Shown: positions 1,392 through 22,489 of the stretch, piece after piece
How the letters are laid out: each line of letters starts with the position of its first letter
How positions within the stretch are numbered: position 1 is the first letter of the stretch
IMG/VR virus record: IMGVR_UViG_3300007734_000761
Span: 96,001 to 160,000 of that record
From: a virus
DNA length: 64,000 bases
Strand: one strand, 5' to 3'
Notes under the pieces: generated by a model
The model's input: the letters and a program-made list of their open reading frames with translations, nothing else
Databases searched by the model: none
Told to the model about the DNA's origin: nothing
Translations under genes and position numbers: made by a program

Positions 1392-3668
1392 CTAAATATT
1401 TGGTAAAGAATTAAATACAGTTAAAGGAGAAATAGATTTTTCACAAATATGTTGTTTATCTGTTCCTTTCCATATAGGACACCAATCCCAATCTCCAGGA
1501 TCAAAAGTAAAATTAACATTGTTCCAACATGAATTACAAGCATGTTCATTTTGAATTCTTATATTGTTACTTAAAAACTCATGGTCTTTTTGTGAGAAAC
1601 CACTTATCATTACTGTTTGTTTTCCTAAAGCCCAATTTATCCATGACAAACCTGAACTAAGTCCTATTAAAAATTTGGCGTTATATAAAATATCCATAGA
1701 TTCATTTAATGTTTTACCATGAATATTTAAATTACCTTTTATGTTGTATGGTTTACTTGTAAGAGTAACTACAGTGTAACCTAATTCACGCAACATTTTA
1801 GATAATACTACCCAACTATCATAAGGCCATTCTTTACAACCAGTTGTTGACTCAGGAGCTATAACTATATAATCAGCTTTTGTTGATTTAGGCTTTAAAG
1901 TAAAATTTATTCCATAGTTTAATTCTTTAAATTCTAAACCTAAAATATCAGATGCTGTTTTTTGTAAAGGCTGAGTATTTGGATAATTAGGATAATAATC
2001 AAACTTATCCCACTTTCCAGATTCTCCCTTCATCCATCCTATTCTATATACTACATAACATTCTGTAGAATTTCCAGGTTCTATAAATTCAATATCTTTA
2101 TAAGCATCTAAACCTTTAAACCAACTGTTATGGAATGTACTTAAAATTACTTTACAGTTATGTTTTTTAGCAAATTCAACGGCATATGGAGTCCAAGCAA
2201 CTGTGTCACCTATACTTTTTGATTCTAATCCAATTAATACACGTTTATTAGTTAAATTAAATTCATCTACAACACTTCCATTAACTTTAATTTTCCATTT
2301 AGTATAATATTTTCTAGAACATAAAGTCCACATATTATTTTTAATAGTATCTTTATGAATTACATTGTTATTTTCATCTAAAAATTCAATGTCGTATTTT
2401 TCATCAATGTCACCTATGATTTCAACTTTAGGACCATCAATATAACTAATTTTTATTTCATTTTTTTGAGGAATATAAGGATATTTTTTATTAAATTCTA
2501 ATATTGTTTTAAAACCAATTTCACCTATTTTCTCCCAGCTAAATTGTTCTCTTATTTTATTAGAATCTTCAATAGCATTTTTCTTTAAATCACTATTAAA
2601 GTTATATGCTAATCTCATTTTTTTAGATAAATCTTCAAAATCTGGTTCATAATAATTACCTGTATATCCATTAAAATGATTATATGAAGAATTACTTGCT
2701 GGTTTTTCGCCTAATATGTTTACTGGTATTCCTTTACCTTCTGCAAATTCTAATTGACCTGAGCAATTAGAATAAATTGATGGGATCCCACAAGCCATTG
2801 CTTCTATTAAAGGTAAGTTCCATCCTTCTGAACGAGCACAAGACAGAAATACATTACATGATTTTAGTATTTTAATGTATTCTTCTCTTTGAGGAAAATG
2901 AATTATTTTTATTCTTTCATCTTCTAAACCATAATATTTTAGTCTATTTTCTGTAGTTTCTAAATTGTCTCCTGAAAATGGATTATCTATAGAAACAATT
3001 AAGTCAACAGGTTCGTCTTTATCAAATGTTTTAAGAAATGTTTCAATAATTTCTTTAGTTGATTTTCTGTAATCCCATCTTCCTGCTAAAAAGAATTTAA
3101 ATCTACCATCTGAGGTTAACTCATGAGTAGTCTTTTCAGGAAAAAAGATATTAATATCAACTCCTTCAGGAACAACTTTGATTTTATCAGGATCATATCC
3201 TTGAGCAATAGTTACATCACGTTGCCATTTTGAAGGAACCCACATTTCATCAAATTCTTTTAATTTATTAAAGAAATTTTCGGGTTGAAGAGTAGTTTCC
3301 CATACATTATATGCGATTTTAGGTCCTTTATAATCATCGTAAAATAAATGATGGTCAGTTTCACATAAAACAATATTTAAATCTTGACGAAATTCTTTAG
3401 AATTATCAGGATAAATTTTATAATTACTTCTACTTCCATCATTATTCCAAAGAATTTGTTCATATAAAATAGATTTATCTACTTCATTAATATAAGGTTC
3501 ATTATTATGAGGAGTTTCATTATAACCATCCCAACTTTTTCCTATAGTAAAATTTCTAACTTTCAGTTGTAAATGTTTAGATATTTCTCTAAAAAAATCT
3601 CTAGTATGTTGATTATAACCTGTAGTTCCTATATAAGAACCATGTATATATACTTTGGGTTTATTCAT
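1392..3668 (-). CDS. Two-domain glycosyltransferase: N-terminal GT4 plus C-terminal TibC/Aah-like (GT9-related) protein O-heptosyltransferase domain
   Basis: N-half has YNVWET, VPSKW, GRWDYRK and EGWNLPLIEAMACG (GT4 EX7E motif). C-half has SIGDTVAW, IGLSSGLSW..WALG..TVMISGFS and CNSCW..FD..DWDWCP...HICEKSIS, the four-Cys iron-finger pattern of TibC/Aah. Confidence 0.8.
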   Translation of the reverse strand: MNKPKVYIHGSYIGTTGYNQHTRDFFREISKHLQLKVRNFTIGKSWDGYNETPHNNEPYINEVDKSILYEQILWNNDGSRSNYKIYPDNSKEFRQDLNIVLCETDHHLFYDDYKGPKIAYNVWETTLQPENFFNKLKEFDEMWVPSKWQRDVTIAQGYDPDKIKVVPEGVDINIFFPEKTTHELTSDGRFKFFLAGRWDYRKSTKEIIETFLKTFDKDEPVDLIVSIDNPFSGDNLETTENRLKYYGLEDERIKIIHFPQREEYIKILKSCNVFLSCARSEGWNLPLIEAMACGIPSIYSNCSGQLEFAEGKGIPVNILGEKPASNSSYNHFNGYTGNYYEPDFEDLSKKMRLAYNFNSDLKKNAIEDSNKIREQFSWEKIGEIGFKTILEFNKKYPYIPQKNEIKISYIDGPKVEIIGDIDEKYDIEFLDENNNVIHKDTIKNNMWTLCSRKYYTKWKIKVNGSVVDEFNLTNKRVLIGLESKSIGDTVAWTPYAVEFAKKHNCKVILSTFHNSWFKGLDAYKDIEFIEPGNSTECYVVYRIGWMKGESGKWDKFDYYPNYPNTQPLQKTASDILGLEFKELNYGINFTLKPKSTKADYIVIAPESTTGCKEWPYDSWVVLSKMLRELGYTVVTLTSKPYNIKGNLNIHGKTLNESMDILYNAKFLIGLSSGLSWINWALGKQTVMISGFSQKDHEFLSNNIRIQNEHACNSCWNNVNFTFDPGDWDWCPIWKGTDKQHICEKSISPLTVFNSLPNI

Positions 3669-22489: not shown

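Follow-up and report, generated by a model that had tools for sequence, protein, structure and literature searches.

What use might a phage have for a set of sugar-transferring and methylating enzymes that are encoded in the midst of its structural genes, next to its fibres? The question is raised by a 64-kb stretch of viral DNA (hereafter the window; bases 96001-160000 of the 176,311-bp IMG/VR record IMGVR_UViG_3300007734_000761, rated complete by CheckV), in which all genes lie on the minus strand. A preliminary description of the window had pointed to a co-oriented block between neck and sheath genes and had proposed that the enzymes of the block modify the adjacent fibres; all the genes that it listed were found, in that orientation and at the positions given below. 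Two of them are central here, namely K, which encodes a giant Gly-Ser/Thr-Ser repeat protein, and B, which encodes a GT4 glycosyltransferase fused to a relative of the Escherichia coli enzyme TibC. A second collagen-type fibre gene (J) and further enzyme genes lie between them. The most likely answer, in our reading, is that the phage sugar-coats its own fibres. That is, judging from the sequence, the block is probably a late-operon cassette encoding two trimeric collagen-like virion fibres, K and J, together with the enzymes that would modify them in the cytoplasm of the infected cell, ahead of assembly or in its course.

TibC-like genes are coupled to Ser/Thr-type Gly-X-Y genes

The product of B (1392..3668, minus strand; 758 aa) is predicted by profile searches to be a fusion of a GT4 domain (residues ~96-390) with a BAHT/TibC-type protein O-glycosyltransferase (residues 403-755). 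The C-terminal half matches TIGR04414, the NCBIfam equivalog for TibC and Aah, over profile positions 10-371 of 374 (214.2 bits against a curated cutoff of 200; 2.6e-63), and aligns to the sequence of the TibC crystal structure 4RAP at 5e-37. The GT4 domain is recognised by PF00534 at residues 186-308 (51.1 bits against a cutoff of 26.4; 1.5e-13), and a GT9 match was obtained at 6.5e-9. In TibC, Asp110 is the catalytic base, Thr226, Lys230, Arg286 and Trp305 bind the sugar, and Cys339, 342, 358 and 370 form an iron finger that mediates assembly and substrate binding (PMC4358343). B retains the equivalents of Asp110 (its Asp488), Thr226, Lys230 and Trp305 and all four iron-finger cysteines, and these positions are conserved among 88 unique phage homologues as well (Asp110, Lys230 and Trp305 in 88/88, Thr226 in 85/88, Cys4 in 87/88). 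The position that governs stereoselectivity is occupied by Ser, the same residue as in Aah. The family-level call of a GT4 plus TibC-like transferase made in the preliminary description was thus right. Of the profile searches proposed there, those with TIGR04414 and GT4 matched B and that with FkbM matched E, a methyltransferase gene described below. The GT4-TibC fusion recurs in other phages, in some of which it carries added GT25, GT32 or FkbM domains, and the BAHT-type enzyme family comprises more than 2000 protein clusters in metagenomes. One homologue of 1375 aa (locus L255 in record G021, 1187-5311) apparently has an intein inserted in its GT4 domain (Intein_splicing 3.5e-7, under the Pfam cutoff).

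The association between this enzyme and Ser/Thr-type Gly-X-Y fibres was tested in both directions. In the forward direction, 80 viral loci with relatives of the TibC domain (56-92% identity) were compared. Across these loci the GT4-TibC fusion is constantly paired with the sheath gene, and the gene content between the fibres and the fusion is variable. Gly-X-Y runs, where seen, were always co-oriented with the enzyme gene and upstream of it. Many of the contigs begin inside the Gly-X-Y repeat, which indicates that assemblies break there. Ser/Thr-type fibres were present in all seven of the relatives' contigs with >12 kb of upstream sequence, whereas five TibC-bearing contigs without a fibre end <11.4 kb upstream and are therefore uninformative. 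In several lineages the arrangement is reduced to a bare two-gene module, consisting of a Ser/Thr-type fibre followed by GT4-TibC.

In the reverse direction, viral contigs were searched with a DNA pattern of eight consecutive Gly-(Ser/Thr-like)-(Ser/Thr-like) codons that is blind to the enzyme. A TIGR04414 match was found in 16 of the 35 long searchable records, 15 of them above the cutoff, and by our tally 10 of the 11 records that were at least 60% complete and had at least 50 Ser/Thr-type triplets were TibC-positive. A composition-blind Gly-X-Y pattern served as control. No TIGR04414 match was obtained in any of the 30 control records with other collagen types (non-Ser/Thr-type, i.e. a Ser+Thr share of X and Y of <=0.52), and one Ser/Thr-type record that the control also retrieved was positive (Fisher exact test for 16/35 vs 0/30, p ~6e-6). 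Eleven of the 16 positives have a Ser/Thr-type Gly-X-Y open reading frame (ORF) no more than 10 kb from the TibC gene, placed upstream or downstream of it or in a convergent or opposite-strand layout. The capsid protein is related to that of the phage studied here in only 5 of 17 positives; the complete positives without a related capsid are a 66-kb genome with inverted terminal repeats and genomes of 69, 249 and 548 kb. BAHT-type genes are thus statistically and positionally coupled to Ser/Thr-type Gly-X-Y genes across unrelated phages. The co-occurrence of TibC-like and GSS/GTS-repeat genes that the preliminary description had anticipated is therefore borne out strongly, and against a negative control; its wider proposal, that the enzymes modify the adjacent fibres, is supported in part.

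An isolated phage, Microcystis phage Mel-JY01, carries a GT4-methyltransferase-TibC fusion gene directly after a (GTS/GSS)n gene, and because the same gene pair is present in an isolate the model is directly testable. A literature search for Mel-JY01 found no paper. In its record (PP395634.1, locus L001, 1-3052) the GenBank coding sequences 1-651 and 739-2298 are antisense to the Gly-X-Y repeat and have P/E/V-rich products. On the plus strand a (GTS/GSS)n frame is open for 805 aa from the first start codon (1016 aa from the start of the record) and runs in the same direction as the fusion gene. In the related Flavobacterium phage immuto no GT4-TibC match was found, and no Gly-X-Y run between the capsid and sheath genes. 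Among cellular genomes, Ser/Thr-type runs were seen at 10 of 62 TibC-like loci and at none in a Negativicutes clade. Metagenome-assembled genomes of Arenicellales (L377/L433) and Methylococcales (L380) and locus L430 have TibC-like genes with Ser/Thr-type runs of ~11-26 triplets within ~1-2.5 kb, and at the Arenicellales loci such runs lie on both sides of the TibC-like gene.

The two collagen-like fibres

K (12095..22489, minus strand) encodes a predicted collagen-like fibre of 3464 aa without proline in its repeat, made up of an N-terminal domain of 128 aa, a Gly-Ser/Thr-Ser repeat and a beta-sandwich knob. The repeat, residues 129-3266, consists of 1045 Gly-X-Y triplets with a single Gly-to-Ser break (1045/1046). 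Position X is Ser in 568 and Thr in 433 triplets and position Y is Ser in 1020; Pro is absent and there is almost no charge. The whole protein contains 1624 Ser and 463 Thr, 2087 in all, and matches Pfam Collagen (PF01391) with 1314 bits, which places it among the collagen repeats. At the DNA level the repeat copies are only 64-79% identical to one another, their periods are all multiples of nine, and three Gly codons and both Ser codon families are used. Because Gly has been kept throughout in spite of this divergence, we regard its periodicity, which lies far beyond chance, as maintained by selection at the protein level and not as a by-product of recent amplification. For the same reason K reads better as a collagen-type trimeric fibre of up to ~0.9 micrometre than as the disordered 'mucin-like coat' of the preliminary description. 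As a triple helix with 0.286 nm per residue it would have a calculated length of ~897 nm. Orthologous open frames in three other related contigs measure 3251, 3493 and 3160 aa, so that the length of K is conserved. Inside K (window 16785-16933) a 45-bp unit is repeated 3.3 times at 99% identity, a value to be set against that of the copies elsewhere; this looks like a recent local duplication, and the length of the array would therefore still be changing.

The preliminary description had recognised the (G-S/T-S)n repeat correctly, although it gave the protein a length of ~3100 aa. A plus-strand ORF of 3099 aa (12876-22175) does exist; it was rejected as a gene, being confined to the repeat, antisense to all neighbours and devoid of non-repeat domains. 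It is the antisense image of the K repeat, an artefact of codon composition that is a trap for gene callers.

The C-terminal ~115 residues of K were modelled by AlphaFold2 as an all-beta domain with a core pLDDT >90. This domain matches PHROG 17490 (9e-45) and PHROG 28536, both of unknown function. In structural comparison with VIA-align its best neighbours, with Z 8.2 to 5.6, are lectins and the tips of phage tailspikes and fibres; Foldseek gave no match at E <=0.001, and a profile of the domain gave none either. The model fits a distal knob, without being decisive.

The second fibre gene, J (9687..12080, minus strand), encodes a collagen tail-fibre protein of 797 aa, identified by Pfam Collagen (1.7e-93, 306.8 bits) and by PHROG tail-fibre families. 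Its 205 uninterrupted triplets differ in composition from those of K, with Pro (79) and Ala (71) at X, Thr (96) and Gln (88) at Y and no charged residues, and it ends in a Peptidase_S74 intramolecular chaperone domain (PF13884, residues 702-761; 51.7 bits against a cutoff of 22, 1e-13). Downstream of it are I (8794..9687, minus strand), for a LamG/concanavalin-like protein of 297 aa (Laminin_G_3 3.7e-22; phrog_8510, a virion structural protein, 1e-15), and H (8167..8754, minus strand), for a PKHD-type 2-oxoglutarate (2OG)-Fe(II) oxygenase of 195 aa (2OG-FeII_Oxy_3, PF13640, 8.4e-15, 56 bits). The Pfam matches thus agree with the earlier assignment of all three genes. The HxD...H and RxS motifs of 2OG oxygenases are seen in H as WHLD, ILH and RRS. 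The best PDB match is a PKHD-type hydroxylase (1e-10), and the best solved relatives are YbiX/PiuC, not the collagen prolyl 4-hydroxylases. H is nonetheless a candidate prolyl hydroxylase for J, in which Pro is found mainly at X and only 7 times at Y. Among the 80 TibC-bearing loci (L003-L082), which are phylogenetically non-independent, a 2OG oxygenase gene is present at 13/13 loci with Pro-type collagen vs 0/10 with only Ser/Thr-type fibres. This association, which alone links the 2OG gene to Pro-type collagen, is compatible with prolyl hydroxylation of J.

What the enzymes would modify

In the mechanism that we propose, the TibC-like domain of B would use a nucleotide sugar made by the host to glycosylate Ser/Thr hydroxyls of K, and perhaps the Y-position Thr of J as well, with ADP-heptose as the default donor of the BAHT family. 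The GT4 domain of B, the propeller protein G and perhaps C would start or extend the glycan, the putative methyltransferases D, E and F would methylate it, and H would hydroxylate proline in J. Dense O-glycans on K would do the stabilising work of proline and hydroxyproline in a triple helix that lacks both residues and has no charge and no salt bridges, and they would also hydrate the fibre. This stabilising role is proposed because of a precedent: the peptide (Gly-Pro-Thr)10, a random coil on its own, becomes triple-helical when its threonines are galactosylated, and glycosylated Thr likewise stabilises the triple helix of a vent-worm cuticle collagen (PMC11923368). The outcome would be a hydrated fibre of up to ~0.9 micrometre, whose N-terminal domain would dock near the neck or tail and whose lectin-like C-terminal knob would make the first contact with the host. 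The position of K beside neck-like genes recalls that of fibritin in the gene order of T4, a comparison that is speculative.

Glycosyltransferases in the hypervariable tail-fibre regions of aquatic myophages are usually read as modifying host lipopolysaccharide (LPS) (PMC7029224; PMC12801897), and the transferases and methyltransferases of the block could likewise act on the host envelope during infection, altering the LPS core, O-chain or capsule (to exclude superinfecting phages, for instance), and merely be located in a plastic fibre region. The LPS core is the substrate of GT9 relatives such as WaaC, and the GT25 and WavE-like leads point towards LPS enzymes. This explanation is nevertheless improbable, since B scores above the equivalog cutoff of a protein-specific family and keeps the iron finger, the block is located inside the late structural operon, and the enzyme co-occurs with Ser/Thr-type Gly-X-Y genes but not with other collagens, a specificity that would go unexplained if the target were host LPS. 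We give as little credence to the possibility that the acceptors of the enzymes are other virion proteins (the capsid, the sheath, the tube, or J only) and that K is an unmodified spacer or fibre. Such a scheme has a model in the mycobacteriophages, which attach sugars to their capsid and tail-tube subunits (Freeman et al. 2023, as cited in PMC12619734), and it would suit both the abutment of GT4-TibC and sheath genes throughout this clade (79/83 related loci) and the many Y-position Thr of J, which resemble those of glycosylated BclA (PMC8968730). Yet in other lineages the TibC gene is found beside the Ser/Thr-type fibre, not beside the sheath gene, the two-gene modules hold only the Ser/Thr-type fibre, and the non-Ser/Thr-type collagen records lack the enzyme even though they include Pro- and Thr-containing types.

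Somewhat less improbable, though still unlikely, is that K forms no triple helix and that its Ser/Thr/Gly polymer chain stays flexible and intrinsically disordered, as a mucin-like brush that may or may not be glycosylated. K has no Pro, charged pairs or known stabilising residues, so that an unmodified triple helix is expected to be unstable, just as (GPT)10 is a random coil when it carries no sugars. A disordered linker, however, would not require Gly at every third residue to be kept while the DNA diverges, and both the conserved length and the presence of a folded C-terminal domain, at the site where collagen folding is nucleated, speak against it.

Several observations weigh against the glycosylated-fibre interpretation itself. 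The triple-helical state of K and its place on the virion are predictions, and the knob resembles its structural neighbours only moderately (Z 8.2 at best). The proteins that BAHT enzymes classically modify are the beta-helical passengers of autotransporters rather than Gly-X-Y repeats; no Autotransporter domain (PF03797) was found in the 176-kb genome, and the neighbours of B are Gly-X-Y fibres. The equivalent of the sugar-binding Arg286 is Ser in B and Val, Ser, Ile or Thr across the 88 phage sequences, only 5 of which have Arg. The phage genome contains no gmhA and no credible hldE-type gene, and gmhA is present in only 2 of 23 TibC-positive phage records. As to co-occurrence, record G030 (148 kb, 84% complete, the record behind L134), the only fairly complete record to depart from the pairing, has 84 Ser/Thr-type triplets and no TibC-like gene, in which case another transferase may substitute; the 636-kb megaphage LR756504 (L084) has a TibC-like enzyme and no Gly-X-Y run within 20 kb; and co-inheritance within clades inflates the counts.

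As for the donor sugar, the lack of conservation at the Arg286 position means that the sugar may differ from the heptose of the TibC family. Phage-encoded ADP-heptose synthesis was considered as support for heptose and set aside, being not found in this genome and rare in TibC-positive phages, among which all rfaE-domain-II-like matches are below the cutoff. One of the two gmhA matches, in LR756504.1 (430182-430640), exceeds the curated cutoff (251 bits) and lies ~27 kb from the TibC-like gene. Glycosylation of DNA was likewise rejected as the function of the block, as neither the enzyme families nor the specific link to Ser/Thr-type Gly-X-Y genes fit it.

The proposed system would share features with several known ones. 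It is closest in its enzyme to the TibC-TibA and Aah-AIDA-I systems of E. coli (BAHT, TIGR04414, 4RAP/4RB4), whose family cutoff the C-terminal half of B passes, with the catalytic Asp, three of the four sugar-binding residues and the Cys4 iron finger kept. TibC is cytoplasmic and hyper-glycosylates its repeat substrate processively (PMC4358343). B would similarly work in the cytoplasm, hyper-modifying a large number of Ser residues in a long, repetitive surface protein whose gene lies close to its own. Unlike TibC and Aah, B is fused to GT4, is phage-encoded and has no autotransporter partner, and the repeat protein beside it is of the Gly-X-Y collagen type instead of a beta-helix. The nearest bacterial analogue of the fibre is the glycosylated collagen-like filament BclA (PMC8968730; PMC9614988) of the Bacillus anthracis/cereus exosporium, the collagen-like region of which is O-glycosylated on Thr with a glycan ending in a methylated sugar, anthrose, to which the proposed K glycans can be likened. 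K and BclA resemble each other as collagen-like filaments whose repeats contain hydroxyl residues, whose C-terminal domain is globular (a trimerisation domain or knob) and whose length is set by repeat number. BclA, though, has tens of (GPT)n triplets with Pro where K has 1045 Pro-free ones, it is a spore component and not a virion component, and its enzymes (rhamnosyltransferases, anthrose operon) are unrelated.

Virus-encoded glycosylation of virion proteins is represented by chlorovirus PBCV-1 A064R (GT+GT+methyltransferase) and A061L and by the collagen hydroxylase-glycosyltransferase L230 of Mimivirus (PMC9614988), and for phages it has been established in mycobacteriophages, according to work cited in PMC12619734. 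As in chlorovirus and Mimivirus, the phage would carry its own cytoplasmic glycosyltransferases, multi-domain enzymes included. The acceptors in the chlorovirus, Mimivirus and mycobacteriophage systems (capsid N-glycans, Glc on hydroxylysine and C-terminal capsid/tube tags) and the enzyme families differ from those proposed here, and no BAHT-type enzyme or Ser/Thr-only collagen occurs in them. Stabilisation of the K helix by O-glycosylated hydroxyl residues instead of hydroxyproline would resemble that of the collagen of the vent worm Riftia and of Ac-(Gly-Pro-Thr(beta-Gal))10; those collagens, however, are animal or synthetic, with Pro at X and Thr at Y, whereas K has Ser/Thr at both positions.

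To our knowledge, phage-encoded glycosylation of phage particles has been demonstrated experimentally only in mycobacteriophages, and our literature search on BAHT enzymes or heptosyltransferases with phage or collagen-like repeats found no prior description. Genomics here ties an abundant BAHT-type family to a specific and unusual class of substrate. If the interpretation holds, it would give BAHT enzymes a role outside pathogen adhesins, provide a natural sugar-stabilised, proline-free collagen and account for the abundance of glycosyltransferases in the fibre regions of aquatic myophages. The fibres would measure ~9x a typical 100-nm phage head, which would change the modelling of adsorption in dilute waters. 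As a tentative generalisation, for which we would not claim an even chance, several unrelated aquatic phage lineages may build near-micrometre filaments of a proline-free 'glyco-collagen' that becomes a triple helix only through coating by a BAHT-type collagen Ser/Thr glycosyltransferase, and many 'LPS-type' glycosyltransferases of fibre regions may be virion-glycosylation enzymes and not modifiers of the host surface.

Other genes of the block and its surroundings

Among the remaining enzymes, G (7187..8170, minus strand; 327 aa) gave no Pfam or other sequence-profile match. Its AlphaFold2 model (pLDDT 86.9, pTM 0.89) is a five-bladed propeller, for which the top Foldseek matches are a mannoside synthase, GH130 phosphorylases and the Leishmania MPT (GT108) mannosyltransferases (E 4e-9 to 1e-6, TM 0.5-0.65), among them 9ERG, 6Q4Z, 7FIR and 4UDK. 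This places G in the GH130/GT108 fold, in agreement with the GH130-like propeller proposed earlier, and suggests that it is probably a beta-mannoside-forming enzyme. The G family comprises 4658 proteins, some of them fused to FkbM or GT25 domains. Three methyltransferases had also been proposed, two of which are clear from their profile matches: E (5235..5972, minus strand; 245 aa) belongs to the FkbM family (PF05050 3.4e-17; TIGR01444 9.9e-25), and D (4626..5210, minus strand; 194 aa) is Methyltransf_24/CmcI-like (PF13578 6.9e-15; RMNT_CmcI 8.2e-5, just under the cutoff). The third, F (5974..7194, minus strand; 406 aa), is probably a TPR protein with a divergent FkbM-like methyltransferase domain, the match being weak (FkbM 4.5e-4, below the Pfam cutoff); further leads are a TehB-like match (1e-4) and an Atlas score of 0.94 to a viral FkbM/TPR cluster. 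C (3677..4651, minus strand; 324 aa) had no Pfam, PHROG, NCBIfam or PDB match, and its nearest named Atlas clusters, GT25 (0.90) and WavE (0.89), are leads to a possible glycosyltransferase. Searching the PDB with the single sequences of G, C and F returned no match.

The phage is a distant T4-like myovirus, with a Gp23 capsid protein (1.3e-76), a gp21-type prohead protease and PhoH. The capsid protein shares 49% identity with its counterpart in Flavobacterium phage immuto and 45% with that in Mel-JY01, and these relatives, together with a GC content of ~30%, suggest an aquatic host of the Bacteroidota type. A megablast search of the capsid-to-fibre region against isolated phages gave 0 matches. 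The order of transcription is capsid, PhoH, N, M, L, K, J, I, H, G, F, E, D, C, B, tail sheath, tail tube, baseplate hub. As the intergenic gaps from capsid to sheath measure only -26 to +58 nt, the K-to-B block would be part of a single late structural transcription unit; promoter and terminator scans stayed at chance level and were uninformative.

At its upstream border the block is flanked by N (24334..25935, minus strand; 533 aa), a probable gp13-like neck protein on the strength of two weak matches, to the head-tail adaptor phrog_211 (1.6e-6) and, over the C-terminal stretch 437-497, to T4 gp13 chains in the PDB (E 0.003). Between N and K lie M (204 aa) and L (409 aa; together 22491..24334, minus strand), conserved structural-module proteins without a Pfam or PHROG family match, of which L is 36% identical to the product of immuto gene 213, sited between head-completion and fibre genes. 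The downstream border is the tail sheath gene A (1..1333, minus strand; phrog_23, 4.6e-75), which encodes 731 aa and extends past the start of the window. Elsewhere in the window, an ORF of 768 aa (47671-49977, minus strand; G000:145846-145914) has a marginal cytidylyltransferase-like match at its N-terminus (E 0.003); the Mel-JY01 annotation includes a 639-aa 'cytidylyltransferase like protein'. The structural region also contains a second very large ORF, of 1863 aa (56235-61826, minus strand).

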